The notes under the pieces were generated by a model. It was not told the origin of the DNA. It did not search any database and saw nothing but the letters and a program-made list of their open reading frames with translations. Source: Pseudomonadota bacterium (lineage in GTDB: Bacteria > Pseudomonadota > Gammaproteobacteria > Burkholderiales > JABEVD01). Taken from it: a DNA stretch of 64,000 bases. This document shows positions 13,101 through 29,847 of the stretch, piece after piece (positions within the stretch are counted from its first letter, which is position 1; every line of letters starts with the position of its first letter). The position numbers were made by a program, and so were the translations under genes. Location of the stretch: contig JAJZRS010000001.1 of NCBI GenBank assembly GCA_021802545.1, positions 30,822 through 94,821 of the forward strand, given 5' to 3'.

Positions 13101-13630
13101 AGCTCAGAAAATGGAACCGGGCAGGGCTCGACATCGGGGTCAGCATCAATATTTCGGCCTACCACCTCGAATCGAAAGGCTTCGTTGACATGCTGAAGAA
13201 GAAGCTCGACCTGTACCCGGATGTACATGCGAGCAGCATCCAGATCGAGATTCTGGAAACGGCCGCCCTTGCCGATGTGGCCATTGTTTCGGGCGTCATC
13301 GAGGCATGCAGAAAGTTCGGCGTGGGGTTCGCGCTGGACGATTTCGGAACCGGGTATTCTTCACTTGCCTATCTGAGCCGCCTGCCCATCGATTCGCTCA
13401 AGATCGACCAGTCTTTCGTCAGGGGCATGTTGAACGACAAGGGGGATCTCGCCATCGTTCAGGGCATCGTTGCGCTCGCCAGCGCATTCGAACGGCAAAC
13501 CATCGCTGAAGGCATCGAGTCGGATGCGCATTATGCTATGCTCGTTAAAATAGGATGCGATGCTGGGCAGGGCTACGGCATCGCCCGGCCGATGCCTGCA
13601 GAAGAACTGACGAACTGGAGGATGAAATGA
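10127..13630 (+). CDS. CHASE-TM-PAS-PAS-PAS-GGDEF-EAL signalling protein (diguanylate cyclase/phosphodiesterase)
   Basis: ATG at 10127; the listed ORF starts at a TTG at 10085. Periplasmic CHASE-like block (YPGIQGIGYSLVV, IVYLEPFDWRNQRAFGYDMYSEP). Three PAS-like units each end in RDITERKR- or RDVTESRR-type linkers. GGDEF site is RLGGDEFVVLL. EAL site is GAEALLRW...DDFGTGYSSL. Confidence 0.9.
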   Translation: MDQNSSPSDTYPDAASESTSHYGVFLPYLVLMLSLAATFLVWTVESRVVNRDARDYFDFRADDAVLQMEGRLRLYEQALRGAQALFLSSGSVSRDEFKSYVLGLNLNAVYPGIQGIGYSLVVKPLDLKKHIESIRRQGFPEYAVKPQGVRDLYSAIVYLEPFDWRNQRAFGYDMYSEPTRRKAMETARDTGKMTMSGKVVLVQETKKDVQSGFLMYLPIYKKGMPHETLAERRANIAGWVYSVFRMGDLMHGVYKDRNDEIDIHVYDGKEMDEKSIMYDLEPGFPARSVFTTVKDLTVAGHEWTIWIGSRPQMEARFNSNQPFWIAGGGTLISLLLALVTWMQVNGRRRAARLAVELNQDLIESRKALQNENEKNLALLHNASDGIHILDEAGNIIEASDSFCSMLGYSREEVIGMNVSQWDAGFTDSAMLLAAVRKQFESPVRSQFETLHRRKNGTVFEVEVSGYPLELEGRQVLFNSSRDITERKRLEKQLIERESLFHAIFDQAPNAIELIDPETLCFIEVNPAACRMLGYPYDEFVSMRLVDTQVDLSEEALKSAVRKIEASGSITLENRHRCKNGEILDVEITSKMLDLPGRRLLVGVWRDVTESRRAERAMRVTSSVFDTSQEGILITDADNVILEVNPAFSSITGYSREEVIGKKPSVLSSGRQDKSFYEEMWRILNEKDAWRGEIWNRKKSGEVYAELLSISIIRDEDGKTLRHVGVFADINDLKRHEAELSRIAHYDALTGIPNRALLADRMKQAIAQTKRDHNLMAVCYLDLDGFKAVNDTMGHEAGDEVLISVAERIKGTIRGGDTVARLGGDEFVVLLLGLEKGEECVATLGRLLEAISIPFEIKGKVFALGASIGVSIYPLDDEDADTLMRHADQAMYQAKQSGKNRFDIYDPSLDLRARDHREFMKSVRQAIDNEEFELYYQPKINLRTRRMVGAEALLRWHHPERGLLSPAEFLYLVENTELDIEIGEWVVETALAQLRKWNRAGLDIGVSINISAYHLESKGFVDMLKKKLDLYPDVHASSIQIEILETAALADVAIVSGVIEACRKFGVGFALDDFGTGYSSLAYLSRLPIDSLKIDQSFVRGMLNDKGDLAIVQGIVALASAFERQTIAEGIESDAHYAMLVKIGCDAGQGYGIARPMPAEELTNWRMK

Positions 13631-14457
13631 GCAAGAATCAAGCCCTGTTGCGTCTGCGTTCCCTGCCTGTCATGCCCAGGATCGCAATGGAAATCCTGTC
13701 GCTCAGAATCGCGACGGAAGAAGGGGAGAAGGCGCTGCTCGAACTGATCAGGAAGGATCCCGCGATTTCTGCGAAGGTCATCGGGCTCGCCAATTCCCCT
13801 GCATTTGGCACAACGAAAAAGATCGTTTCGGTGAATGATGCTGCAGCAAGGCTGGGCATCAAAAGGGTCAAGCTGACGGCGATGATTTTCGCCATGATGG
13901 CAGCGATGATGCGCACGCCGAGCGGGCTGCTCAATGCGGGGGGCCTGTGGAAGCACAGTCTTGCTGTTGCCATGACGATGAATGCCCTTGCTCAATACAT
14001 GCCCGAGGACATGCGCCCCATGGAAGACGATCTTTTTTTGGCAGGCCTGCTCCACGATATCGGTTTCCTGGTCCTGGATTCCATCGATCCGGTGCTGAGC
14101 GACAGTTTCCATGCGAGGCTGGTAGCTGAAAACGGGCATTCAGAAGAAGAAATCGAGAGCGCGATGCTGGAAATGAGCCACTGCGAACTGGGTGCCGAGC
14201 TGGCGAAGCATTGGGGCTTGCCGCAAACCATCATTGAGGTGCTGCGGCATCATCATCATCCCAAGAAAAAATCAGGGCCGATGGTGATGATGGCATGCAT
14301 TGCCGAGAAGCTGCTTCCCACTTTCGGCAATCCGGAAAATCAGCTTCCCATCTCCCAGGAGGAATGGAGATCCATCGGCATCGATCCCGAAAGGCAGGGT
14401 GAAATCAGCGAAATGGCGAAGCTGCACGCAAGGGAAGTTGCCGCATCCCTGGGCTGA
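13627..14457 (+). CDS. HDOD-domain protein
   Basis: The ATG overlaps the upstream stop (ATGA-type coupling). HDOD hallmarks are present: LPVMPRIAMEIL, DPAISAKVIGLANSPAFG, LWKHSLAVA, AGLLHDIGFLVL. Confidence 0.8.
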   Translation: MSKNQALLRLRSLPVMPRIAMEILSLRIATEEGEKALLELIRKDPAISAKVIGLANSPAFGTTKKIVSVNDAAARLGIKRVKLTAMIFAMMAAMMRTPSGLLNAGGLWKHSLAVAMTMNALAQYMPEDMRPMEDDLFLAGLLHDIGFLVLDSIDPVLSDSFHARLVAENGHSEEEIESAMLEMSHCELGAELAKHWGLPQTIIEVLRHHHHPKKKSGPMVMMACIAEKLLPTFGNPENQLPISQEEWRSIGIDPERQGEISEMAKLHAREVAASLG

Positions 14458-17891: not shown

Positions 17892-18061
17892 TGCGTGTTT
17901 CCTTCTCTCTTCAGATACTTAAGATCTATTGATTTGCTGTGAGATAGATCGTTTGACTATTAAAATGGTATTAAGGCTCATTGGATTTGCAATCGCTTTA
18001 TCCATTGCGATTGGAACGGGCGATGAGCTGGGGGCGTTTCAGCTATTGGATACGCGCAAAC

Positions 18062-18093
18062 AAAAACAGCCTGGAGAAAACTCCAGGCTGTTT
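18062..18093 (-). terminator. Rho-independent terminator (best on the minus strand), now without an adjacent upstream gene
   Basis: Perfect stem CAGCCTGGAG/CTCCAGGCTG (extendable to 13 bp) with a 4-nt loop. On the minus strand it is followed by TTTTT. It sits directly beside the decayed tRNA-end repeat at 18102. Confidence 0.7.
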
Positions 18094-18101
18094 AGCTTGA
18101 T

Positions 18102-18119
18102 TGGTGCGCAATAGGAATC
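18102..18119 (-). repeat. Decayed copy of the tRNA-Thr 3' end (old att remnant)
   Basis: TGGTGCGCAATAGGAATC versus the tRNA 3' end TGGTGCCGGCAATAGGAATC: 18 matching nt with one 2-nt gap, in the same orientation as the other two copies. Confidence 0.55.
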
Positions 18120-18321
18120 TTGTGGAAATTGCAGCTACCTGTATAAAAACAACAAAAGCCGATTCGGTTTTTGCCATATACCCCCAGAAATACCCCCATC
18201 TTTGAAAGCCCCCGGAAAATCCGCGGTTCGGTTTCCAGTTGAATCATCCGGTCATTTTGTTGCATCCATGGGCATTCTGAAAAATTGCAGCAACAATATT
18301 CATTGAATCGGGAGCGATTCT

Positions 18322-18341
18322 GTAAACCCTGGTTGTAAACC
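18322..18341 (+). repeat. Direct repeat GTAAACC-N6-GTAAACC near the left end of island A
   Basis: GTAAACCCTGGTTGTAAACC. A closely related GTAACCCTGGCGTAACCC sits at 22217-22234 near the right end. Confidence 0.45.
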
Positions 18342-18818
18342 ATTTTGTCAACTCCGGAATTTTGCCACCGACTGGCGAAATGATGCGGCCCGAATTGCCC
18401 TCGACAAAATGCTCCGGGAAGGACCCGCTGGAGCTATCCATGCAGGGATCATCGATTTTTCTGCGGGACGGGCGGGACAGTCTTCTGCAAGCCGCATCTG
18501 GCCGCCTTCTTGCTCGTCCTGAAAGCGCATTTCAACGGCGGGACGCGCAGGGGCAGCCGGGACGCTTTCTCTTGCGGCCGGGCTCAAGGAGGGCACCGAA
18601 ATCATTCCGCTGAAGACCAATTGCAGTACCGCAATTGAAAACAATTCCCCAATTCATATGCAAAACCATTCACTTTTTGCAGATTTTTGCATACGGGATG
18701 GGCGTCGGGTCGATCGAGAAATTCAATATCAACCTGAGTTTATTATCTGAATAATAAGAAGAAAACTATTGAAATCAAAATAAGATCAATGGATTGATGT
18801 TGTTTTGCATGAATAGCA

Positions 18819-19547
18819 TCAATTCGCTGAGCTTGAGCTGCTCGACGTAATCGCCCTGAGGCGTTCAATTACAATATGCACCCTGGCCTGGCTGCCCGGG
18901 TCGCCCGGCATGTGTCCGGGCAAAGCCTCGAGAAATCTGTCATCCTTCAGCAAATCAGCCAAACGCTGCCCGAGATGAATTCTCAGTTTTTCATCGCAGT
19001 GCCTCACTTCTTCCACGATTTCAGGCCTGCCATCGAGAACTGCCACGATATCTTCCATGTCATGGCTCATCATGTAGTCGCCTTTTCCTCTCCCAGCGAA
19101 CGCTGCAAGTTTGGTCGCAAGGAAATAGGGTGCCGAGACCATCCGGATCTTTCTTCCCGAAGGCAATTCCTTCCATTGGGCCGCCTTGAATGCGGGTTGG
19201 TACCATTCGTTGCCGAAACCCAGGATCTCCGGATGGGTCGGCATCACATCGAGCAGTATTTCCCCTGAGCGCCAGCGGCAAATCGGCGCATCCGAACTCA
19301 TGTCTTCGCTGAATCCTGATTCCCGAAGCCGCTTTGACAGGCGCTGGTAATCCACCAGGGAAGCCACCTCGGAAATGGCATCCACGTCTTTTGTGGCGCG
19401 CACAGGCGGAGCAAGCGGATCCGTGATCAGGAGCCCGGTCGCGCAGCCGCCGAGAAACACGAGTTCATTTGCCCATTCGCCGAGTCTGGCAATGGCGAGT
19501 TCCATGATCTCGAGATTGGGATTTGCCGATCTACGCATATTTCGCAA
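18819..19547 (-). CDS. Nucleotidyltransferase-fold protein, AbiEii-like toxin candidate
   Basis: NTase signature (FLGGCATGLL...RATKDVDAI) and a later K..A...R......D.EDI block (ATKLAAFAGRGKGDYMMSHDMEDIVAVL) resemble AbiEii/DUF1814-type proteins. 17-nt overlap with the upstream gene. Confidence 0.5.
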   Translation of the reverse strand: MRNMRRSANPNLEIMELAIARLGEWANELVFLGGCATGLLITDPLAPPVRATKDVDAISEVASLVDYQRLSKRLRESGFSEDMSSDAPICRWRSGEILLDVMPTHPEILGFGNEWYQPAFKAAQWKELPSGRKIRMVSAPYFLATKLAAFAGRGKGDYMMSHDMEDIVAVLDGRPEIVEEVRHCDEKLRIHLGQRLADLLKDDRFLEALPGHMPGDPGSQARVHIVIERLRAITSSSSSSAN

Positions 19548-20049
19548 ACCGATCCTTCAGCTCCTTGATCGCCAATTCACGTTCACGCGCCCTTCCACCC
19601 CTTATGGCATCCACCAGGGCGAGCAGTTCGTAAAGGGTGGGGTCAATGCGCGAAGCCTGCGGAGCGAACTTGTACAGAGGCGAGAAGGCCACGCCCCGCG
19701 CGGAGCCTTCCGGGTCAGGCCAGACAGGAGGCGGCTCGGCGGATTCGGCAAAGTGCCGATCCAGGGGGGGCGCTGCGTAGGAAGTGGGGATGCCTCTGGT
19801 CAACTGCCCGAGTTCCGGCACGAAGACATAACGCAAGCCGTGCACGATGAATTCCTGGAGATTGCGGATATTCGGCGCGATGATGTCTTCCTTTTTCACG
19901 GCGATCTGCGCGGCAAGCGCGCGCCGCACGGCTGAATGAAGCTGCGATGGGCTCATCCCCAGGCTCACGGCCAGCGAGGCATAGGACCAGGGCTGTTGTC
20001 CCATGGCCACCAGCTTGAGCATCACCAGAATGTCCTGCGGCTTCAGCAT
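19531..20049 (-). CDS. Putative winged-helix partner protein (AbiEi-like antitoxin/regulator candidate)
   Basis: The N-terminus MLKPQDILVMLKLVAMGQQPWSYASLAVSLGMSPSQLHSAVRRAL looks like a wHTH. It is first in a two-gene overlapping unit with the NTase. No family assignment is possible by eye. Confidence 0.4.
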   Translation of the reverse strand: MLKPQDILVMLKLVAMGQQPWSYASLAVSLGMSPSQLHSAVRRALAAQIAVKKEDIIAPNIRNLQEFIVHGLRYVFVPELGQLTRGIPTSYAAPPLDRHFAESAEPPPVWPDPEGSARGVAFSPLYKFAPQASRIDPTLYELLALVDAIRGGRARERELAIKELKDRFAKYA

Positions 20050-20060
20050 TCCACATCCAT

Positions 20061-20077
20061 ATTCTAGATTCTAGAAT
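20061..20077. promoter_or_regulatory. Near-perfect 17-bp palindrome just upstream of the AbiEi-like gene (operator candidate)
   Basis: ATTCTAGATTCTAGAAT. The reverse complement differs only at the two central positions. It also reads as tandem TTCTAGA. It lies 11 nt upstream of the start codon at 20049. Confidence 0.4.
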
Positions 20078-20132
20078 TGAGAATACATTGCGGGAATCAG
20101 CAAGTCAAACTGCCCGACGTAAGCGTCTCTAT

Positions 20133-20471
20133 TCAGCTGGGATTCTGATCGAGCAAGGTCTTGATGGCATCTTCAAGTTCTTGAAGATGCTTGTCGATCA
20201 CGTCAGAAACCGTCAGCGGATCTATGTCGCCCAGATAATTGTGCACGAGAATATTGCGAAAACCACTGATATCTCGCCAGGGAATACCGGGAAAGGCGGA
20301 TTTTTGGTCGTCCGGGAGCAATTGGGTGGCTTCCGAAAGGGTTTGCAGGTTTCGCAGCGCTGCATCGTACAGAATTTCATCCTTGGCAATTTCGCCGCGC
20401 ATCTGAATGCGCCTGATCTTGGCGATGGCATCCAGGATGTGCAGCGCGTAGGGCTGCCAAGGTTTACTCAT
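20133..20471 (-). CDS. hepT: HepT-like (DUF86) RNase toxin
   Basis: The R-x4-H-x-Y motif is present as RNILVHNY. Size is 112 aa. 4-nt overlap with the upstream MNT gene. Confidence 0.8.
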   Translation of the reverse strand: MSKPWQPYALHILDAIAKIRRIQMRGEIAKDEILYDAALRNLQTLSEATQLLPDDQKSAFPGIPWRDISGFRNILVHNYLGDIDPLTVSDVIDKHLQELEDAIKTLLDQNPS

Positions 20472-20770
20472 AATTCCACGGCTTCGCCGATCACTTGCTC
20501 GCGAATATGCCGATTGAGTTCGTGCTCAGGTACCAGCTCCACTTTCCGGTGAAGCAGATTTTCGAGACCTGCGGCAAGTGGCATGCGCTGAGCGAAAAGA
20601 TCGTAACCGCGTGGGAGATCAACCAGAATATCCACGTCGCTGTCCGCGCGCTCCTCTCCGCGCGCAACGGAACCGAACACGCGGATGTGCTTCGCACCGT
20701 ACTGGCGCGCCAAGGCTTCGATCTGATTTCTGTTTCGCCTCAACTCATCAAGCAGCATTCCTGTCCCCAT
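20468..20770 (-). CDS. mntA: MNT-type minimal nucleotidyltransferase antitoxin (MntA)
   Basis: GSVARGEERADSDVDILVD NTase signature. Met at 20770 has AAGGTGG upstream. The ORF is open to a TTG at 20794, and another Met lies at 20758. Confidence 0.8.
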   Translation of the reverse strand: MGTGMLLDELRRNRNQIEALARQYGAKHIRVFGSVARGEERADSDVDILVDLPRGYDLFAQRMPLAAGLENLLHRKVELVPEHELNRHIREQVIGEAVEL

Positions 20771-20852
20771 GCTCAGCTGACCACCTTGATGCAATTATAC
20801 TTCTCGTCTGCATTGCGCTGTTGGATTTTTCTTTAATCGTATCATGGTGGAA

Positions 20853-20969
20853 TCAGAATCCGAGCATGCAGCTGGCATTCAACGCGACGAAAACCTGCAG
20901 CACCTTGATCCTGCTCTCGGGTGACTCAGCCCCCGAATAGTCGATGCCGATATAGCGGTCGAATTTCAT
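20853..20969 (-). pseudogene. 38-codon remnant of a gene with an MKFDRYIGIDYSGAE N-terminus
   Basis: Hand translation gives MKFDRYIGIDYSGAESPESRIKVLQVFVALNASCMLGF*. The IGIDYSGA opening is familiar to me as the N-terminus of much longer hypothetical proteins, and here it stops after 38 codons. Confidence 0.3.
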
Positions 20970-21117
20970 CAATCCTTCTTCGCAGTGCATGAAAGCGATA
21001 TTTCAAGCCTGGAGCCGATACAAGTCAACATTTCATGAAGGATCTCGTGCATCACAGATAATCACAGTTGCGGCGCTCAGGCGGCAGGGGTAGGATTCTG
21101 AAAAAAAGAAGAAAAAC

Positions 21118-22026
21118 ATGGGGGAAGACGAACAGATCCGCGCAGCAGCCTTCGAGCATGTCCGGCGTCTTGGCGAAACCATAACGTCCAACGACATCAG
21201 GGCAGGGTTCATGTTCAATGGCGTGCGGATACCGCTGGTCAATCCTCAGCGCGGAATTTTCAAGCCGCGACAGATGCAGCATCTGCTCTCCATCCGGACA
21301 GTTTTCCCCAAGCCCGGTGCAAGGGTTTGGTACGACGATCAGAAGCAAGTCCATCGGCAGATTTTTGAAGGGGAAGAGAGCGTCGATTACGCCTTCATGG
21401 GCGACAATCCCGATGCAGCTGAAAACCGCTGGCTGCGAGAGGCAATGGAAATGCGGAAGCCCTTGATCTATTTTCTCGGTGTTTCCCCAGGGAATTACCA
21501 GGCAATCATGCCGACCTATGTGGCGGGATGGGATGCAATGTCTCTGAAGGCCCAGGTGACATTTGGGTTGCCTAACGAGACCAAACTCGAAATTCCGGCG
21601 AGCGCATTGGAGAGAAGATATGCGCTGCGGGAAATCAAGCAAAGACTCCACCAGGCGTCATTCAGGGAAGCCGTCATCTCGGCATACAATGGACGCTGCG
21701 CTTTATCGGGTTTTCCTGAACCACTGCTTCTTGATGCAGCGCATATCATTTCAGACAAGGACGAAAATTTTGGCCAGCCGGTGGTCCCAAACGGCTTGCC
21801 GCTTTCCAAGATACATCACGCGGCTTTCGATTCCCATTTGATTGGCATTGACCCGGATTTCAAGATACATGTCTCGAAGCGGCTGCTGGATCTGAACGAT
21901 GGCCCGATGCTTGAAGCATTGAAGCAGCTTCACCATCGTTCTATCCACCTTCCCGGACGAATGAAGGATTATCCGGATCGGTCACGCCTCGAAAGACGAT
22001 TTCAGGAATTCAGACAAGGGATGTGA
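21118..22026 (+). CDS. HNH endonuclease (HNH_2 / COG3440-like predicted restriction enzyme) with an unassigned ~190-aa N-terminal domain
   Basis: C-terminal block: YNGRCALSGFPEPLLLDAAHIISDKDENFGQPVVPNGLPLSKIHHAAFDSHLIGIDPD (Cys...AAHI...NG..L....H..FD). The N-terminal domain (GVRIPLVNPQRGIFKP...) is not identifiable by eye. Confidence 0.7.
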   Translation: MGEDEQIRAAAFEHVRRLGETITSNDIRAGFMFNGVRIPLVNPQRGIFKPRQMQHLLSIRTVFPKPGARVWYDDQKQVHRQIFEGEESVDYAFMGDNPDAAENRWLREAMEMRKPLIYFLGVSPGNYQAIMPTYVAGWDAMSLKAQVTFGLPNETKLEIPASALERRYALREIKQRLHQASFREAVISAYNGRCALSGFPEPLLLDAAHIISDKDENFGQPVVPNGLPLSKIHHAAFDSHLIGIDPDFKIHVSKRLLDLNDGPMLEALKQLHHRSIHLPGRMKDYPDRSRLERRFQEFRQGM

Positions 22027-22216
22027 AAGAACATGAATTGCCATAACGTCGGGCAGCAAGTTGCCAGTAACCTGCCGATCAATCTGGGATAGCCTTGAAC
22101 GGTATCCACCAAGCTACTATTGCTACTCGTTTTAACAATCCATCCATGTTAGAGAGTATATCAAGGTAAGTTTAGGGAAATTCGAACCACGAAAGTGCTC
22201 GGGTTTTTCAATTCGT

Positions 22217-22234
22217 GTAACCCTGGCGTAACCC
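22217..22234 (+). repeat. Direct repeat GTAACCC-N4-GTAACCC near the right end of island A
   Basis: GTAACCCTGGCGTAACCC, 47 nt from the 45-bp att repeat. It is the partner of the repeat at 18322-18341. Confidence 0.45.
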
Positions 22235-22280
22235 AGTTAGAAACTGAAAAGGCGATTTGTTGTACAACTAATTGATTTAT

Positions 22281-22325
22281 TGGTGCCGGCAATAGGAATC
22301 GAACCCACGACCTTCTGATTACAAA
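22281..22325 (-). repeat. Perfect 45-bp direct repeat of the tRNA-Thr 3' end (att site between the two islands)
   Basis: TGGTGCCGGCAATAGGAATCGAACCCACGACCTTCTGATTACAAA is identical to 29772-29816. Sequence diverges immediately after, so this is not a second tRNA gene. Confidence 0.9.
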
Positions 22326-22400
22326 CCCTTTGGGGCCTAAAAAATATATGTTTTAAATCAATAGGTAATTTCTTAACTTATTGAAACATAATAATGGTAA

Positions 22401-22440
22401 GTCCTCTTGTGTCCTGTTGTGTCCTCTTATGCCCTATTGG
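22401..22440 (+). repeat. Four tandem 10-bp units phased at one helical turn
   Basis: GTCCTCTTGT GTCCTGTTGT GTCCTCTTAT GCCCTATTGG, lying in the AT-rich arm just inside the left end of island B. Confidence 0.6.
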
Positions 22441-22442
22441 TT

Positions 22443-22463
22443 TGTAGCCTATGTGTAGCCTAG
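22443..22463 (+). repeat. 21-bp motif TGTAGCCTA-N2-TGTAGCCTAG (left copy)
   Basis: TGTAGCCTATGTGTAGCCTAG. A 19/21 identical copy in the same orientation sits at 29697-29717, inside the other end of island B. Confidence 0.65.
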
Positions 22464-22677
22464 AAAATTGGGGACATCGAACCTAGAACACCCCGAAAGC
22501 ATAAAGCTATTCAATTTTGCCACGACAATTGTCTTATTGGCCGATCATCGGCCTTTGCTAACTGAGAAATGGTATGCCTTTTGGGGGCAGGTCAGACCCG
22601 CCATTCAGCGTTTGTTGGCCCTGAACAGCCACGTCGTCATCTGAAGAAATCGGAAAATGGTGGTCTGTCCCGGGTCC

Positions 22678-24099
22678 TTACATAAACATCCGATAGTCGT
22701 AGACATCGTTTACGATGTCGGGTGATTGCTTCACCACTTCAGCAAAGACCTGCGAATACACGAGCGTTACTGGCAGCGTCTTGTATAGTGTGTTGTTGTT
22801 CCAGTCGACCTTTGTGAGGGCAAGAGTGCTCGCGCATGTCGCATGCCATCCCCCAACACCTGAGAAACGGCGCAGCATTATCGGTTTGGGTAGAGGTTTC
22901 AGCGGTGCTTCCTTGAAAACCGGCTGATTGGGTTTCTCCTGATTGATACCATGAACGGCTCCTTGCGTCCAAAGCAGGCACTCGTTTTCTGTAAGTGGCT
23001 GGTAAAGGCCGCGATCAACAGGATATCCTGCAGGAGCCGAGTTCTTGTTCCATTTGTTCGGTCCGTCAATTTTCAACCCATACCAATTGGTTCCGCGGAC
23101 GATCTGAACAAGCTCTATCTCCATCTTCGATCCGAAGGCATCGAACGCGCCTTGGATTTCATCCTCGGTGAAGCCTGTTGTCTTATGGACATAGATCTTT
23201 TTCGGCAAGCGCCCGTTGTGTGAGTTTTGATAAAGCAACAGGCTTTTCGATAACACTGACTGCATCTCTTGATACGTCAGGTATGGATTGCCTTTACGAT
23301 CTGTCGTGTACTCGCGCGTGTCGTAGGCAACAAACTCGAAGCCGGTACCATCGGGATCAAAGACCTGGCTGCAACAAGTACTGTATTCGGCACCATTCTC
23401 AAGCTTCTTGATGGCGTAGCTTAGTCCGATATAAGCCTCATCCTTGTCCCAGTCAGCGAGCTTCCAGGGAATTCCATTTGCCTTTGCATAGAGGGCAACG
23501 CTCAATCCCCATGCGACCTGCGCACGACACGTGCGTTCGAACATAGTGTCGTTGATGATCTGGATTGGAATGTTGAGCGGTGCGACCTTCGCTTTGATCC
23601 TGTCGTGAAGATTGAAGCCTTCGTATAAATAGGCCGCCTTCCATGCAGCAGGCAGATGAACGATCAATACGTCAAACGAATGTGTGAGCTTCTGCAATGG
23701 AAGGATCGCCTGCAAGATCATGTCAGCTAGACCATTGCCATCCCTAGCAGCGGCCATGGTATTGCACTCATTCGGTGTGGGGACGCGCAGATTTTCCGTC
23801 GGCGGTACAAGCTGGGCCCGGAAGACCTTCTCAAACCCCTCATATGCAATGTAGTAGTTTGGAGCTTCACGTACCTGCAGTTTGTTCATCAATTCGCCGG
23901 CAAGCGCATCGAGCCTCGGAAGGAGATTGCTTGGCGGGTATGCAAGTCGGACCACTTTTGGCGCACCGATGTCGAGGCTATATGGGCCATAATCCACCAG
24001 ACCGCGTAACGGATGAGCGTGGGTCTTTCCACCCGCGAAGAGCAGATGCGGTTCCGGCAGAATGGAATTGGCAGGTAGCGCGTTTGGATCGTTAGACAT
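22678..24099 (-). CDS. Short prokaryotic Argonaute (MID-PIWI only, predicted catalytically inactive)
   Basis: 473 aa. MID/PIWI blocks: [54 protein letters not shown], and C-terminal YDYRMFM. The position of the first slicer Asp reads IGLSY. 8-nt overlap with the upstream SIR2-APAZ gene. Confidence 0.85.
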
Positions 24100-25873
24100 T
24101 TTTTCCGCTCCTCCTGCTGAACGCGGAGCGCATGCTGATTTGGAATTCCGCGGGATGTTCGGTGCCTTTGTACGCGATGATGTTCGCGTCCCCTTTCCCG
24201 ATGCCTCCGAGAAAAATCTCGATCCAAGCGCTCAGAATTTGGGAAGCTTGCTTGTTATATCGGCGTATTTTCTTATTGTAGAGAAAGTCGGTGGCTTCTT
24301 CGCGCATCTTGTATGGAGAAATCCAAACATCAGGTTGCAGCAGCAACCACAACTGTCCGTTCCGCTCCTCAACCTTCAGCGAAACGGCCTCTGCCCAATA
24401 GACATCTTTGAGGCCAGGAACCTGGCCGTTAACAACGCCGGGATGAAATTTGCCATTCACATCTTTCCAGGAAAGCGCGTCTCGCAAAGGTTTCAAAGCA
24501 TCGCTGTTGGCCTCCACATGGTAGGTGATGGCGTACCACGTCTTGCCCTGCTTACGCAGCAGGAGAGGTTTGTCAGCTACCAAGGCGGTCGCAACGGTTT
24601 GCTCCACCGTTGACTTCAAGTAAGTCGAAGCGTCGATTACACGAACAAGATCGTCGATCTCGAATGTCGAAATCGACTTAACCCGGTTCGGCTCGTAAAT
24701 CTTGGCAAGTTCCTTGCCGTCTCCCCAGAACAGGATGCGATCCGTGTAACAAACCGAGCAAGGAGGTTGCTTCTCGAACAAGACGTCTTTCAACTGTCTA
24801 ATGTCCAAAGTTCCGTCATAATCGATTGTGCCGCAGGTACTAGGAAAACCTGTGATTCGGAGCGCGTTCGTGCGAAGAATGGGATACGCAGTGCCAACAG
24901 GAGGTAGTGGAATCTTCATTTGCTCAACCGTCGCGCTCCTAACTTTTCCGTCTACGTCCGGATTCTTCTCGGCGACCAATCGCCAGATTTTCGCCAGCAT
25001 CTCATCGAAGGTACCGGTTTCGACGATCCCACCTTTAACGCCCTTACTGTGTGCATAGTCCATCAGCTCACGTACAGGCTTTTCGACGCGAGAAATCCGC
25101 GTAACGGTCCAATACAAACCGTGTGGAAAAGAGTTGTTCTGTTCGATGGCCTCACGGAACATCGCCATCACGTTGCCGTCGCGCCCGCTGTATCCGCTGA
25201 CGACCATCCCGAAGCGAGTAGCGGATGCCACAAGACATTTCTGAATTTCACGATCATTATGGAGCAGATCCTCTGTGAGATTCTTCACGGCCTGATACCG
25301 AAAGTCGCCGTGAACCTTCGCGTAAAACGGAAACCTCTCGGCGTTCAATGCCTCAAGCGCGGCGTAGGAACCTTCAAGATGGAAGGTCGTTAGATTCTTA
25401 CCTGTGATTGAGGCGTAAGCAGATTCAACAACCTCGTCGAAATTGGTTGTGAAGATGATCCGTGCAAGACCGAGGTGGAGGAGTGCAGCTAGCGCGCGGT
25501 GCCCGATCGTTGAGGAAATCTTATCTGTCGAAAGCGCTTTATTGAGATACTTCTGCTGTGCTGCATAGTCTTTCCCGAACAGCAACTCGAAATAGAAGGA
25601 ATATTCGGCCGGATCCCCAAGGGGCGGAAAGCTTCTGCTGTCCATGTACGTCTGTATGCGGGCTTGGACAGATCGATTGCTGACGTCATGTGCAACAACA
25701 TCTTGATTTTCCTGGGTACAGTAGTAACGAAGCTTAAGATCCCAAGTTAGGTCTGTTGCAGTCGGAAGGCCCGAACTGCGTGACGCTCCAGCTCCGAGAA
25801 ACCACATTAGTTGCTTCCCTGTTTGGGCGACAAGCTGGCGGAAGTCGATTTCCTTGATCTCTGGCATCGGCAT
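24092..25873 (-). CDS. SIR2-APAZ protein (NADase effector partner of short pAgo)
   Basis: N-terminal SIR2-type motifs: [38 protein letters not shown]-terminal ~300 aa of APAZ-like size follows. The ATG at 25873 has AAGAGGTG 9 nt upstream. The ORF is open to a GTG at 25885. Confidence 0.8.
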
Positions 25874-25994
25874 TGTGAGCTGCACCTCTTATAACTGCCC
25901 AATTAAATATAAACCCACAGGCTCCACAAAACCTACCAGTTATTCCGGTGTCGATAGGTTCGCTTATGGTCAGTAGCGATCATTCTAGCCCGTT

Positions 25995-26061
25995 GGCATC
26001 AGGCCGCAAAGGCCGATGCCCAGGCCTCGCCCGAGGCCGAAGAAGTTGTGTACTGTTACAC
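25995..26061. other. Cluster of GC-rich stem-loops in the divergent intergenic region (candidate structured RNA or protein-binding element)
   Basis: Hairpin 1: GGCATC-a-GGCC-gcaaa-GGCC-GATGCC (25995-26020). Hairpin 2: GGCCTCG-cc-CGAGGCC (26023-26038). Hairpin 3 is weaker: GTGTA-ctgt-TACAC (26048-26061). The surrounding island DNA is AT-rich. Confidence 0.4.
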
Positions 26062-26113
26062 GACCGCATTGGTGTACATTCCAGGCATTTAGGTTGTAAA
26101 GTACGTTTTGATT

Positions 26114-26142
26114 TTGGAACGATTCAGCCCAAATGTTAATAA
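26114..26142 (+). promoter_or_regulatory. Sigma70-like promoter candidate for the RT-nitrilase gene
   Basis: TTGGAA-N17-TAATAA, ending 35 nt upstream of the ATG at 26177. This is a pattern match only. Confidence 0.3.
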
Positions 26143-26176
26143 GCGGCAAGATAATTGTACAAATATCCAAGGATTG

Positions 26177-29100
26177 ATGATGGGTTATCAGGAAAACTTC
26201 TCCGGCTGGAATCAGATAACACTAGAAGATTTGGTGGTGGCTTACCGCAAAGCTAAGGCGGACTGTTTTTTTGAAAACACCTTTCCTACTGCCATCAAGT
26301 TTGCCGAATACGAACAAGATCTGCTTTATAATTTAAAAAAACTATTGTCTAGCTTGCATACTGAACAAGGGTTTTCCGATAATGATAAATATTTAGGTGA
26401 CATCCGCTTGTTGCCTAAGAAGCTGTCAATCAAAGCAAAGCCAGATGCAGTCAATGGGCACGTTCACTTTTCGAATCCTGCGCGATCCTTTGAGCATCTG
26501 ACCCACCAGAATGACCTGATTCCGGAATTTCGTGTTATCGGTGATTTTCCTGTAGAAACTCATATTCTCTCGGCTTTGTGGATCAATACGGTTGGGCACA
26601 AATTCGATGAACGTCTTGAAGACAGTTGCTATGGAGCGCGCCTCAAGCGGGTTCGTAATGATGAACTGCTTGGCAAAGACGCACCCAAACCATTCCATAT
26701 CAGTGCGATTGGCTCATTTGCCCCGTATTTTCAGCCATACCAGAAATGGCGCAATGATGGTTTGAATGCAATTCGAAGTGAGCTGGAGAAAGGGCACGAT
26801 GTCATTGCTGTGTCACTGGATTTGAAAAGCTATTACCACTTGATTGATCCGATGGCGCTTGCCTCAGATGGGCTACGTGAAGCGCTTGGACTTGAGCTGA
26901 CCGCCCAGGAGAAGTCTTTTACCCTGGAACTGGCTAATTTTCTTTGCCGCTGGTCGAGTCGAGCCAGCGAGTTTGCCGGAAAAACAATCATGGGTAGGAA
27001 GTCTATTCCTGGTGGTCTGGTCATTGGGCTAACTGCAAGCCGAATCATTTCTAATGCCTTGCTGCACCACTGGGACTGCATGATCAAGGAAAAGATCGGA
27101 CCTATCCACTATGGGCGTTATGTGGACGATATGTTTTTAGTGTTGCGTGATACGGGAGCCATTACGTGTAGCGAAGACTTTATGGTTTTTTTGCAGGAAC
27201 GTATGGGTAAAGAGTGCGTTATTCGTAAAAAAAGCGTCAATTCGAGCGCCGTCAATCAAGATCAACTATGGCAGATACAACAAGGTGAATCGATACAAGG
27301 CAAGAGCCAAATTAAGCTACAAGGGGATAAACAAAAACTCTTTGTGTTACAGGGACGAGCGGGGTTGGACTTACTCGACAGTATAGAGCGAGAGATTGCT
27401 GCGCTTTCCAGTGAGCACCGGTTAATGCCTTCACCGGACCAACTGGAGGACTCTACTGCGGCCAAAGTGCTTTCGGCAGCCGGAAGCGTGGGCGAAAATG
27501 CCGATAACTTGCGCCGTGCTGATGGTCTCACTATTCGCCGCTTGAGTTGGGCTTTGCAGTTGCGCCATGTAGAGACACTGGCCCGTGATTTACCGCCCCA
27601 TGAGTGGAAAAGTCAGCGTGAAGAATTTTACCAGTTTGCCCATAACCATATTCTCAGACCTGACACGCTATTTGCTCATTTCACATATTTACCTCGCTTG
27701 CTAGGTTTCGCCATCAGCATGAATGAGTGGAGGCAGGCTGAGCAGATTGTTGTAGCCACTTATGAGTCTCTTGCCATGCTGGAAGCTGAAGTCCGGCCAC
27801 GAGCAAATATCGCCATAAATGGTGTTGAATCCAAATCAGGCGAGGATATTTGGCGTTATATAAAAGGGACGTTGACTTGGTTGTTTATCGATGCTGCAAC
27901 ACGCTATTACGATCCGGACAAGTTACTTACTGATCGGCACGGGCGTAAAGAGCTACGGCTTGCGGAGTTATTTTTAAATGGTATATGGGGTGAGCTGGTT
28001 GATTTCGAGAACCTTCTTAATTTCCGATTCGGGTCAGAAGAGTTTTACCAAAAGGCTCCACTTGTAGCTATGGCCGATCTGGCCAAAGAGCCGTACAAGC
28101 GTATTTTGAAACGCAAAGCAGCAAGCGCATTGTTGAGTCAAGATAATAGGAGGCAAGAGAGTCGAATTCTCAAACTATTGGAATCGACAGAACTCCTCCA
28201 TACAGAAGATCTCAAGCGTTTTTTGCAGTCGACTCGTGTCAGTCGACTTGCAGCTGTTGCAGTGGGACATCGTAGTGGGGAAAGTTATTTGCCTTATCTG
28301 TTTCCAACGCGCCCACTTAGCGCTGCGGAAATTTCTGAATTGGCGCCAGAATGCGTAGGGCTGCCACAAATGGATGGTAAGGCTTGTGAAGATATGCCTG
28401 CTGTAATATGGGCCAAATACACTCAGGCGATACGTGGCGTTTGGGTGAAGCCGACCTTGTTGGCAGCAGATCAAGAAGAGGACGTGAAAGGAAAGAAAAA
28501 GAGAGCGAGCGCAACAAAGTTGCTGAGCATTGGTACAGACAAGAAGCGCAGGATAATTGTCGCTCTGTCCAACCTTAAAACTGAGGATGACGATTGGGCT
28601 GCCTCGGCTTGTGATAAGTCGAACCTTTCCAAGGATCGATATAGCCGTATATCAGACTTGGTAAACCAGACCTTGCGCTTAAATCCGAAACCAGATTACA
28701 TGCTGTTGCCTGAATTGTCTTTGCCGTTGCAATGGGTGGACAGTATTGCCTCTCGATTGACCGTTGCTGGTATCAGCCTAATAGCCGGTACGGAATATCG
28801 ACATTTCGGTAGAGATGAAATACTCAGCGAGGCATGCCTGGTACTAACGGATAATAGGCTGGGTTTTCCTGCAGCTATCAAGATATGGCAACCGAAACTT
28901 CAGCCGGGGGTGCGTGAAGATCAGCGACTGACTGATACATTTGGTAAGCGTTGGGCGTTCTCTGAGCTGACGGGTAAGAAAATCAAGCCAGTGTACGTTC
29001 ATAATGGGACTCATTTTGGCGTTATGGTTTGCTCCGAATTGCAGAACAGTAAAGCGCGAATCAAGTTCCAGGGTAAAGTGGATGCATTGATGGTGCTAAG

Positions 29101-29419
29101 CTGGAATCAGGATTTGGATACCTTTGCTGCGCTTATCGAATCGACTGCTTTGGATCTCCATGCATACACCATACTGGTAAATAATCGCGCATACGGAGAT
29201 AGCCGAGTAAGGTCTCCCGCAAAAGAAGTTTTTATGCGCGACTTGGCTCGTGTGCGTGGAGGGAATAATGATTTTGTAATAGCAGCCACGTTGGATATTG
29301 ATACATTGCGTGCCTTCCAAAGCCGTGCAAAGCGCTGGCCGCAAGAGGGAGATAAGTTTAAGCCGCTGCCGGAGGATTTTAGTTTGGCGGATGGGCGACA
29401 GAAGCTACCACCGAAATGA
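26177..29419 (+). CDS. Reverse transcriptase fused to a C-terminal nitrilase (C-N hydrolase)-like domain; DRT type 1-like (UG/Abi class RT)
   Basis: The start is taken at MMGYQ (AAGGA just upstream); the ORF is open from 26108. RT motifs: VIAVSLDLKSYYHLID (A), GGLVIGLTASRIISNALL (B), HYGRYVDDMFLVL (C, YVDD). A long helical middle region follows. The C-terminal ~300 aa has a Glu/Lys/Cys context typical of nitrilase-fold enzymes (YMLLPELSLP ... FGVMVCSELQN). Confidence 0.8.
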   Translation: MMGYQENFSGWNQITLEDLVVAYRKAKADCFFENTFPTAIKFAEYEQDLLYNLKKLLSSLHTEQGFSDNDKYLGDIRLLPKKLSIKAKPDAVNGHVHFSNPARSFEHLTHQNDLIPEFRVIGDFPVETHILSALWINTVGHKFDERLEDSCYGARLKRVRNDELLGKDAPKPFHISAIGSFAPYFQPYQKWRNDGLNAIRSELEKGHDVIAVSLDLKSYYHLIDPMALASDGLREALGLELTAQEKSFTLELANFLCRWSSRASEFAGKTIMGRKSIPGGLVIGLTASRIISNALLHHWDCMIKEKIGPIHYGRYVDDMFLVLRDTGAITCSEDFMVFLQERMGKECVIRKKSVNSSAVNQDQLWQIQQGESIQGKSQIKLQGDKQKLFVLQGRAGLDLLDSIEREIAALSSEHRLMPSPDQLEDSTAAKVLSAAGSVGENADNLRRADGLTIRRLSWALQLRHVETLARDLPPHEWKSQREEFYQFAHNHILRPDTLFAHFTYLPRLLGFAISMNEWRQAEQIVVATYESLAMLEAEVRPRANIAINGVESKSGEDIWRYIKGTLTWLFIDAATRYYDPDKLLTDRHGRKELRLAELFLNGIWGELVDFENLLNFRFGSEEFYQKAPLVAMADLAKEPYKRILKRKAASALLSQDNRRQESRILKLLESTELLHTEDLKRFLQSTRVSRLAAVAVGHRSGESYLPYLFPTRPLSAAEISELAPECVGLPQMDGKACEDMPAVIWAKYTQAIRGVWVKPTLLAADQEEDVKGKKKRASATKLLSIGTDKKRRIIVALSNLKTEDDDWAASACDKSNLSKDRYSRISDLVNQTLRLNPKPDYMLLPELSLPLQWVDSIASRLTVAGISLIAGTEYRHFGRDEILSEACLVLTDNRLGFPAAIKIWQPKLQPGVREDQRLTDTFGKRWAFSELTGKKIKPVYVHNGTHFGVMVCSELQNSKARIKFQGKVDALMVLSWNQDLDTFAALIESTALDLHAYTILVNNRAYGDSRVRSPAKEVFMRDLARVRGGNNDFVIAATLDIDTLRAFQSRAKRWPQEGDKFKPLPEDFSLADGRQKLPPK

Positions 29420-29696
29420 GATCGCCTAAATATCCATCACATTCTCAGCAACACGACGAACCTAGTTTAGAGGATGTCGAGGGCGTCCGGAAATTTACGT
29501 AAAACGGCCCTTGTCGCCTGAGTTCCGATGGTTCGTAAAGACCGAAGCCCGGTCATCGGCCGAAGCGGTCGATCTGAACATCCTGATAAGGCGACTGCCA
29601 GCACAAATGTTCGCCCCCCTTTTTTGTGAGGCTTGAGTGAAAAAGCGGCGAAGAGGCAATCCGAGCTACTGACTGATGTGAACTCACTTAGAAAAT

Positions 29697-29717
29697 GTAG
29701 CCTAGTTGTAGCCTAGG
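29697..29717 (+). repeat. 21-bp motif TGTAGCCTA-N2-TGTAGCCTAG (right copy)
   Basis: TGTAGCCTAGTTGTAGCCTAG, 55 nt from the tRNA 3' end. It is the partner of 22443-22463. Confidence 0.65.
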
Positions 29718-29771
29718 CGCATTTTGGGCGGGGTCAATGGCCTACAAATTTATCATAAGCCATTGTTTTTG

Positions 29772-29847
29772 TGGTGCCGGCAATAGGAATCGAACCCACG
29801 ACCTTCTGATTACAAATCAGCTGCTCTACCAACTGAGCTATGCCGGC
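29772..29847 (-). tRNA. tRNA-Thr (anticodon UGU), with encoded CCA
   Basis: The reverse complement folds by hand as GCCGGCA-TA-GCTC-AGTTGGTA-GAGC-A-GCTGA-TTTGTAA-TCAGA-AGGTC-GTGGG-TTCGATT-CCTAT-TGCCGGC-ACCA. It is 76 nt with the anticodon loop TT-TGT-AA. Confidence 0.9.

Follow-up and report, generated by a model that had tools for sequence, protein, structure and literature searches.

A defence hotspot at tRNA-Thr(UGU) probably built by accretion of decayed integrative islands

How did a block of defence-type genes come to lie between copies of the 3′ end of a tRNA gene when no recombinase gene lies among them? This question is raised by an 11.7-kb stretch of DNA beside tRNA-Thr(UGU) in an uncultured betaproteobacterium. 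The whole DNA analysed, hereafter the window, comprises 64,000 nt of assembly GCA_021802545.1 (contig JAJZRS010000001.1, 30,822–94,821 of the forward strand), and all coordinates are window positions. Within the stretch we distinguish a proximal island, next to the tRNA gene (22326–29771), and a distal block or island (18120–22280). An earlier annotation of this DNA (the original prediction) had proposed two successive site-specific insertions into one tRNA, the proximal island being the younger. We consider it likely that the stretch is an accretion of decayed integrative islands specific for tRNA-Thr(UGU), at a defence hotspot; the order of the events and the present-day mobility of the islands are what we infer from the observations below. 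The features that delimit the islands are:

29772–29847, minus strand: intact tRNA-Thr(UGU), whose 3′ 45 nt (29772–29816) form the proximal attachment (att) core (ARAGORN, Rfam, 45-mer search)
22281–22325, minus strand: 45-nt direct repeat fully identical to the tRNA 3′ part, where the two islands meet (45-mer search)
18102–18119, minus strand: decayed tRNA 3′ copy (local alignment of the 45-mer)
18064–18093, minus strand: intrinsic-terminator hairpin (13 pairs, 7 of them G-C, and a T-run)

ARAGORN and Rfam (71 bits) agree on the tRNA-Thr(tgt) gene, which is the sole tRNA gene of the window and has a sigma-70-like promoter (10/12 matches) immediately 5′ of it (29884–29856, minus strand). The 45-mer TGGTGCC...TTACAAA occurs exactly twice in the window, at 22281–22325 and 29772–29816 and in identical orientation, where the chance expectation is none; the perfect copy had been correctly predicted. 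In tRNA sense, the identity block extends from the anticodon loop (TTTGTAA), including its first base, to the CCA end. The locus thus displays both marks of integration at an anticodon loop: a direct repeat of the tRNA 3′ part opposite the intact tRNA, and a block that spans the anticodon loop to the 3′ end. The decayed copy, TGGTGC--GCAATAGGAATC, matches at 18/20 nt with one 2-nt gap. It too was found where it had been predicted, and it is the top non-self local match to the 45-mer on both strands of the 64 kb (score 14 versus 11 for the next); it begins at core position 1 and has the orientation of the core, and its anticodon-loop portion is gone. The strongest terminator-like hairpin of the region (minus strand, 18093–18064) is positioned 8 nt 3′ (tRNA sense) of this decayed end and is probably the original tRNA-Thr terminator. 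The non-coding stretches beside the repeats, 352 nt (29420–29771) and 254 nt (22027–22280), have the sizes given earlier. Rfam at permissive thresholds returned nothing beyond the tRNA in both islands and in a variant cassette described below.

If the repeats are scars of integration, is there any trace of the enzyme? No recombinase was found among the eight island genes (Pfam, PADLOC), six-frame translations of all intergenic stretches had no Pfam match at E ≤ 1, tblastn with three integrases from relatives gave nothing below E = 2 in the whole 64 kb, and no recombinase open reading frame (ORF) was found anywhere in the 64 kb. The remaining window encodes housekeeping and signalling functions, namely cellulose synthesis, LuxR/LuxI, GAF/PAS signalling, sspAB, the his and tat operons, Mla, and pilus/type II secretion system genes. 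The claim that there is no recombinase therefore stands for intact genes; it fails at one place in the distal island:

18553–18644, plus strand: 3′ remnant of a tyrosine integrase gene, approximately the last 25–30 codons (...LSLAAGLKEGTEIIPLKTN...IEN) (nucleotide match and blastx)

Positions 18573–18620 (plus strand) match the 3′ end of an integrase gene of relatives (P0242, contigs L116/L117) at 40/48 nt (E = 6e-8); in the protein alignment LSLAAGLKEGTEIIPLKTN faces LS-AAGLKEGAEILPLKTK of P0242. With blastx the segment matched the C-termini of many members of the integrase family (E = 0.003–0.03), and the other intergenic segments of both islands gave no match to this family below E = 0.5. 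A shuffle test of the remnant against the integrase gene of a further relative, contig L012, gave 2/300. The strand of the remnant and its place, between the outer repeat and the gene M21B, are those of the L012 integrase. Because the remnant matches an integrase 3′ end and has the strand and position of the L012 gene, the sequence argues that the integrase of the distal island was lost by deletion. The six-frame Pfam screen, of the kind that had been recommended, overlooked this stub, which is visible only against close family members; its discovery left the boundaries unmoved. ORF 22468–22644 was considered as another integrase remnant and rejected, as it has no similarity to the family. Neither island thus holds an integrase gene, only the remnant at 18553–18644, and with no working recombinase in 64 kb the islands are either immobilised or dependent on an enzyme in trans, as had been proposed.

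The relatives carry what the window lacks. Contigs L012 and L013 contain an 88–90% identical (nucleotide) relative of the distal island (M21B/M21A 95–97% and HNH_2 93% identical in amino acids), which is bounded by two 45-nt tRNA-Thr fragments and encodes a 431-amino acid tyrosine-type integrase (Phage_integrase and Arm-DNA-bind_3 domains). This gene lies at the tRNA-distal end, where it starts 152 nt away from the repeat. L116 (GCA_027331305.1) and L117 (from sample ERZ27237470, the source of the window-type contig L004) encode P0242, an integrase with 88% identity to it; here the 431-amino acid integrase gene follows a repeat that matches the window core at 45/45 nt and has its end at the identical base. 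In L001 and L067, a second integrase type is encoded straight after the tRNA. The ‘usual integrase position’ beside the tRNA end, reported as empty, is thus not where the gene should have been sought: in L012 and L116/L117, which are closest to the distal island, the integrase lies far from the tRNA, 152 nt from the repeat. The proposal of successive site-specific insertions into one tRNA gains support from the extent of the repeat, which fits the anticodon loop, and from the identical 45-nt core beside the integrases of relatives. The repeats of L012 (5272–5316) and L013 (7953–7997) go back to a tRNA-Thr whose anticodon loop is of the CGU type (TTACGAA), and paired T-stem changes distinguish one from the other; the integrase of L116/L117, 88% identical to that of L012/L013, uses the UGU core.

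Further traces of site-specific integration were sought in the non-coding DNA that adjoins the cores:

29420–29771, no strand: right arm of the proximal island (sequence, repeat family, enrichment test; no six-frame Pfam match)
22326–22677, no strand: left arm of the proximal island (tandem repeats; no integrase follows, as judged by Pfam and integrase-family comparison)
22027–22280, no strand: right arm of the distal island, with GTAACCC twice at 22217–22234 (geometry and motif match the L013 right arm)
18120–18552, no strand: rearranged left end of the distal block (repeat pairs and an L013-like block)

In the proximal right arm, a weak hairpin (AATGGC..GCCATT, 29736–29764) right past the tRNA end is accompanied by a tandem pair of TGTAGCCTAG at 29696–29716, 65 and 76 nt from the tRNA end. 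The left arm carries TGTAGCCTA twice at 22443–22463, at +118/+129 from the core, and the TGTAGCCTA pair is present on both proximal arms in direct orientation. The distances recur in the relatives: L012 and L117 have CTAACCCC twice at +122/+133, compared with +118/+129 in the proximal island, and a CTAACCCC pair lies 64/53 nt before the repeat in L013, as does the GTAACCC pair of the distal right arm. Thirteen pairs of exact 8-mers with 9–12 bp spacing exist in the window, and the kilobase bordering the att cores contains 4/13 of them (Poisson P = 6e-5). One chance coding match aside, TAACCC pairs are confined to ends associated with the P0242/L012 integrase type, and GGGGTA pairs occur beside L001/L067-type integrases and at the distal left end (18178–18198, reverse complement; ATACCCCC reads as GGGGTAT). 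We infer that the tandem repeats are putative integrase arm-type sites, because the related integrases have an arm-binding domain. A 10-nt tandem repeat, GTCCTSTTRT (3–4 units, 22401–22439), also lies in the proximal left arm, between the 45-nt repeat and the TGTAGCCTA pair; these units may serve to bind an accessory factor, for instance an excisionase. Elsewhere, a pattern scan of viral contigs for TGTAGCCTA-NN-TGTAGCCTAG gave no match, neither proximal arm matched plasmids (blastn), and the one match to GTAACCCTGGCGTAACCC, in viral contig L102, was treated as chance, being inside a coding region with no tRNA nearby.

The two ends of the distal block carry the repeat motifs of two different integrase types. 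Its left end contains ATACCCCC twice (18178–18198) and TGTAAACC twice (18321–18341); the latter belong to a 100-nt non-coding block, 18331–18428, which is 81% identical to L013 7709–7806, a right end in that contig. The block has no Rfam match and no protein match, and its identification as an integrase 5′ end was rejected since blastx gave no support. Because the left end combines the arm motif of the other integrase type with a block from an L013 right end, segment 18120–18552 is probably the residue of a still older element. The distal block is thus probably a fusion of remnants of two element types, and therefore at least three insertions probably took place at the locus: tandem insertion is supported, but the number was probably higher than two. 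The distal right arm (22027–22280) is 81.6% identical to the tRNA-proximal end of genome L024.

Could the same picture arise with no integrase at all? Turnover at the hotspot might have been purely homologous or illegitimate and the tRNA-fragment repeats incidental, for example products of local duplication. Between 29 and 47% of Pseudomonas core defence hotspots beside tRNA or tmRNA genes are without a mobile gene (PMC10250203), and one variant junction in a close relative (L003, see below) lies off the repeat. We nevertheless regard this explanation, already disfavoured, as highly improbable: the repeat stops exactly at the anticodon loop, both here and at an independent integrase-linked junction, an integrase remnant lies within the distal island, and the arm-like repeats stand at conserved distances.

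Base composition agrees with the description of the inter-repeat DNA as accessory or defence cargo that is AT-richer than its surroundings. The G+C content is 0.525 in the distal and 0.490 in the proximal island, compared with 0.566 in the left and 0.576 in the right flank. For tetranucleotide distance, z rises to 11.5 in the proximal island and to 4.4–4.7 at 17.5–19.5 kb; the centre of the distal island (18.5–21 kb) is host-like (z = 0.2–1.5). A sliding profile, proposed earlier as a check, thus sets apart the proximal island and 17.5–19.5 kb but not 18.5–21 kb.

What do close relatives carry at this locus? The right flank was compared among contigs encoding an identical SspA, and the left flank among contigs encoding the exact cNMP-binding protein and its homologues. 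One contig, L004, is of the window type (99.86% identity). In L003 and L005 both flanks are 99.7% identical and the distal island, including the decayed repeat, is common to the window, but a different 2.5-kb cassette, encoding a ParA/CbiA-like ATPase and a ThsA/LmuA-like SIR2 protein, lies between the tRNA and window position 22232. L007 has a third kind of tRNA-proximal end, so that the proximal cassette is replaced in L003, L005, L110 and L007. Contigs L009 and L011 end exactly at 22232, as expected of an assembly branch point, and this position is the polymorphic breakpoint of the population. In sample ERZ27237470 the window type (L004) and the ParA-SIR2 type (L110) coexist. In approximately 90%-identical genomes the locus holds integrase, AlpA, DUF927, retron-type reverse transcriptase (RT)-Toprim, HNH and HIT genes (L001) or ArdA, HKD-Snf2 helicase and PDC-M07A/B genes (L002). 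Atypical composition and presence/absence polymorphism are therefore both seen for the proximal cassette, though without a truly empty site. The proximal island is variable among 99.7%-identical strains in which the distal island is fixed, and its repeats match at 45/45 compared with 18/20; both observations support the view that it is the younger.

The alternative cassettes seen behind tRNA-Thr in close relatives are all of defence type (L003 11095–13632; L110 15252–17254; L001 11346–19996; L002 11298–17695). At the variant junction of L003, positions 13400–13632 form a GC-rich non-coding stretch of approximately 230 nt with hairpin-like segments and no Rfam match.

The same comparison bears on the idea that both islands came as one pre-assembled composite, either in one integration event or on a large fragment acquired by homologous recombination. 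Composite tandem transfer is documented (PMC5704250) and conserved flanks would permit homologous replacement (PMC10250203). However, the distal island is common to strains with a different proximal cassette (L003, L005 and L110), remnants of HNH_2 persist even in the 82–90% identical relatives L001 and L111 whereas the proximal island is strain-specific, and the outer repeats have decayed very unequally (45/45 versus 18/20). A single arrival is for these reasons very unlikely.

Accretion would then have proceeded as follows. At each entry, a tyrosine integrase would have recombined the element's copy of the last 45 nt of the tRNA with the tRNA gene in the chromosome, the crossover lying at the anticodon loop; this origin is deduced from anatomy and relatives. 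Every entry would have rebuilt the tRNA, supplied a new terminator and displaced the earlier 3′ end outward. The distal block would be old and fixed, with its integrase cut to a 3′ stub and its outer repeat reduced to 18 nt without the crossover region; its excision would no longer be possible. The proximal island would be a recent arrival, having perfect 45-nt repeats and matching TGTAGCCTA pairs where integrase-bearing relatives have arm-type repeats. As it keeps both att sites and lacks an integrase gene, it would represent a cis-mobilizable-type element, movable only by a cognate integrase in trans. Its excision would restore a site reading ...CCTATTGCCGGCACCA followed by ATAAATCAATTAGTTGTACAAC, and its circular form would join the right arm (...CTAGGCTACA..hairpin), the 45-nt core and CCCTTTGGGGCCTAAAAAA. 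The cargo (SIR2-APAZ/short prokaryotic Argonaute (pAgo), RT-nitrilase, HNH, MNT/HepT and PDC-M21) would most likely have been retained by selection for phage defence, and strain-to-strain turnover may also occur via homologous recombination or deletion.

Does the proximal island still move? It might be an active cis-mobilizable cassette, regularly excised and re-integrated by the integrases of sibling elements, which would make the locus resemble a defence cassette array. Perfect 45-nt repeats and matching arm repeats at both ends speak for this; behind one tRNA, 99.7%-identical strains carry at least three alternative cassettes, the same sample contains an integrase-bearing element whose core is identical, and cis-mobilization is documented for such elements (PMC5704250). 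Yet the arm motif TGTAGCCTA is unlike both TAACCC (P0242/L012 type) and GGGGTA (L001/L067 type), so that no cognate enzyme is known, neither a circular junction nor an empty site was observed, and the only readable variant junction (L003) is not at the att core. We therefore judge present-day cassette activity rather unlikely. The wider proposition, that the tRNA-Thr(UGU) locus of this betaproteobacterial clade is a population-level array of integrase-less defence cassettes with complete att arms, swapped by the integrases of sibling islands, appears doubtful still. If true, the array would resemble an integron but be built on tRNA att sites, with att arms made of the tRNA 3′ end, a terminator and tandem arm sites.

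Several observations weigh against accretion by site-specific insertion. First, the relatives examined yielded neither an empty site nor an excision product: in the right-flank search all contigs extending beyond the tRNA were occupied, by several cassette types, and the left-flank search gave only occupied or rearranged sites. The alignment that should have exposed an empty site in relatives, as the original prediction had hoped, thus exposed none. Second, in the L003 variant the junction with the distal island falls 48 nt into the right arm of that island, where there is no repeat. Because this junction is off the repeat, turnover is not all site-specific, and deletion or homologous/illegitimate recombination also shape the locus. 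Third, homology to the left flank (82% identical) in L111 stops at 17987; beyond this point come 64 nt left over from the HNH_2 3′ end and then unrelated genes, and tRNA-Thr is absent. In this relative the left flank therefore does not adjoin tRNA-Thr, and the ancestral arrangement is uncertain. Fourth, neither an integrase-bearing relative of the proximal island nor other copies of its arms were found in loci, viral contigs or plasmids, and the origin of this island from an integrase-carrying element is proposed by analogy. Fifth, the integrase remnant is short (approximately 30 codons), and the tandem repeats are assigned as putative arm sites solely because of where they lie, their enrichment and the Arm-binding domain found in related integrases.

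How does accretion at this locus compare with known systems? In a three-step model, integration is followed by decay to an element with attL and attR but without integration genes, and a newcomer then enters the att site carrying the gene end (PMC5704250). Such cis-mobilizable elements (CIMEs) are rare in databases (PMC10201445). The islands can be held against three properties of a CIME: (i) att sites, of which the proximal cores are both perfect and accompanied by arm repeats, and the distal outer core is 18 nt without the crossover region; (ii) absence of integration and transfer genes, which applies here; and (iii) origin by deletion, for which the distal island offers the stub and the relatives L012 and L116/L117, and no relative or remnant was found for the proximal island. 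In structure, the proximal island appears to qualify as a cis-mobilizable element. The distal block is considered fixed and not a strict CIME, because its outer core lacks the crossover region. As in the accretion model, the proximal island lacks an integrase while both att sites are present, and the distal island displays the decay step directly through its integrase stub. The differences are that the target here is a tRNA in an uncultured betaproteobacterium, that the parents look like small islands encoding P4-like (Arm-domain) integrases and not integrative and conjugative elements, that the cargo is anti-phage defence, and that any mobility is predicted.

Islands in tRNA genes that encode tyrosine integrases and use the anticodon-loop sublocation were reportedly described by Williams in 2002. 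The window islands are like such islands in having the intact tRNA at one end and an anticodon-loop-to-CCA repeat at the other, atypical composition, and relatives with arm-domain integrases; they are unlike them in having no integrase gene, and the integrase of their closest relatives is at the tRNA-distal end. P4-like satellites, and islands encoding a P4-like integrase, are known to carry defence hotspots and offer a second comparison, since relative L001 has an integrase, AlpA and a DUF927 primase-like gene by the same tRNA, together with a retron-type RT as defence cargo; the window islands, in contrast, lack the integrase/AlpA/primase backbone. The locus is also unlike an integron, having no integrase in 64 kb and boundaries that are tRNA fragments, not attC hairpins. 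Defence hotspots are known from tRNA loci: in E. coli, 18 defence-island hotspots are in such loci (PMC10121019), and Pseudomonas aeruginosa has core defence hotspots at tRNA-Pro and tmRNA (PMC10250203). The present locus shares with these hotspots a fixed site by a small RNA gene, varied cassettes in near-identical strains and, as is often the case there, no detectable mobility gene. Unlike them, it reveals its mode of entry through att scars, arm repeats and an integrase stub, and it is smaller (∼12 kb) and from another clade.

The locus is thus a decayed element beside a cis-mobilizable-like element at a defence hotspot, a useful example and not a new kind of system. Growth through mobile islands that decay and lose their integrase genes is well known for bacterial defence hotspots. 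Its value is that of a clean, readable case of how a defence hotspot free of mobility genes forms: the att scars, the arm-like repeats and the 30-codon stub suggest that apparently immobile defence islands beside tRNAs began as integrase-borne elements, and accretion plus deletion would explain the missing recombinase with no novel mechanism. For annotation, it follows that an integrase of this family may occupy the tRNA-distal end and that short remnants slip past screens based on ORFs or hidden Markov models.

The cargo genes of the two islands are:

26180–29419, plus strand: UG5-nitrilase-type RT fused to a nitrilase domain, of the defence-associated reverse transcriptase (DRT) class (PADLOC RT_UG5-nitrilase, E = 0, full length)
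24092–25885, minus strand: SIR2-APAZ, partner of the short Argonaute (PADLOC Aga_SIR2-PNTD1-PNTD2, 2e-196; Pfam SIR2_2)
22678–24099, minus strand: short pAgo, class I (PADLOC pAgo_I, 1.6e-183)
21118–22026, plus strand: HNH_2 endonuclease-type protein (Pfam HNH_2, 1.2e-10; PADLOC HNH, 1.1e-25; 93% identical in L012/L013)
20133–20794, minus strand: toxin-antitoxin pair of MNT (20468–20770/20794) and HepT (20133–20471) (Pfam NTP_transf_2, HepT-like)
18819–20049, minus strand: PDC-M21B (18819–19505/19547, distantly AbiEii-like) and PDC-M21A (19531–20049), a candidate defence pair (PADLOC 2e-67 and 2e-46)

In the distal island, M21B and M21A are 95–97% identical in amino acids to their L012 counterparts, and the lengths of M21A, M21B and HNH_2 are nearly equal to those in L012. 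This comparison found no truncated cargo gene; the truncated gene that had been invoked as a sign of age is not among the cargo, and the only one present is the integrase remnant. The MNT/HepT module (20126–21064) is missing from the otherwise collinear L012, where 69 nt separate M21A from HNH_2, which marks the pair, on sequence grounds, as a separate insertion or deletion within the island. Only the last 64–98 nt of the HNH_2 3′ end (window 21931–22030) are kept, at 81–89% identity, in L001 (20064–20161) and L111 (1546–1609): in L001 they make up the last 27 codons of a gene with 32% identity elsewhere, and in L111 they are an isolated remnant beside the left flank. The alignments mark the HNH_2 3′ end as a recurrent recombination junction, and the cargo modules appear as exchangeable units from which the islands are assembled.

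All three genes of the proximal island match PADLOC profiles over their full length. The SIR2-APAZ gene is followed by an adjacent short PIWI-type Argonaute gene, with an 8-nt overlap, as in SPARSA-type systems; activity is predicted. The pAgo is 85–92% identical to proteins of Pandoraea, Caballeronia and Bordetella. At the nucleotide level the operon is 77–88% identical to these loci, the homology ends at the operon limits and the contexts differ; a wider island common to these bacteria was accordingly rejected, only the two-gene operon being common.

The RT-nitrilase gene is divergent from the pAgo operon. Its open frame begins at 26108, and the gene called in the near-identical contig L004 encodes 1079 amino acids; the PADLOC RT_UG5-nitrilase match spans residues 23–1102 (E = 0) and the RT active-site motif YVDD is present in the translation, so that the protein has the marks of a UG5-nitrilase DRT with a predicted role in defence. 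Full-length homologues (66% amino acid identity, annotated as hypothetical) are encoded by E. coli plasmids CP088862.1 (32098–35304) and NZ_CP146678.1 (22787–25993). The SIR2-APAZ/short pAgo operon lies beside an RT gene in two unrelated contexts (window 24092–29419; L106/L107 8227–13113): in Bordetella (L106/L107) a 500–508-amino acid RVT_1 protein is encoded directly after the operon, whereas in the window the RT-nitrilase gene is divergent. This neighbourhood may reflect chance clustering or functional pairing.

The linkage of sspB to tRNA-Thr(UGU) is conserved across Betaproteobacteria, and among 80 betaproteobacterial genomes tRNA-tail repeats 3′ of tRNA-Thr were found in none except those of the window type. 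Usitatibacter-like genomes have tRNA-Tyr, tRNA-Gly and tRNA-Thr(GGU) after tRNA-Thr(UGU), with tRNA-Trp approximately 1.3 kb further on in longer loci. The Thr-Tyr spacer measures 63–185 nt in most; it is enlarged to 0.5–5.4 kb, with no detectable tRNA-tail repeat, in L029, L031, L033, L035, L036, L043, L049, L051, L054, L057, L058, L072 and L101, and these spacers may be small insertions of another kind. In Nitrosospira/Nitrosovibrio (L080, L084, L086, L097 and L099), the same architecture of a hairpin plus tandem repeats lies right past tRNA-Thr, and in L086 (Nitrosospira briensis Nsp8) a second fragment resembling the tRNA 3′ half is present ∼120–160 nt downstream (∼10689–10734). The island family seems widespread in Nitrosomonadales.

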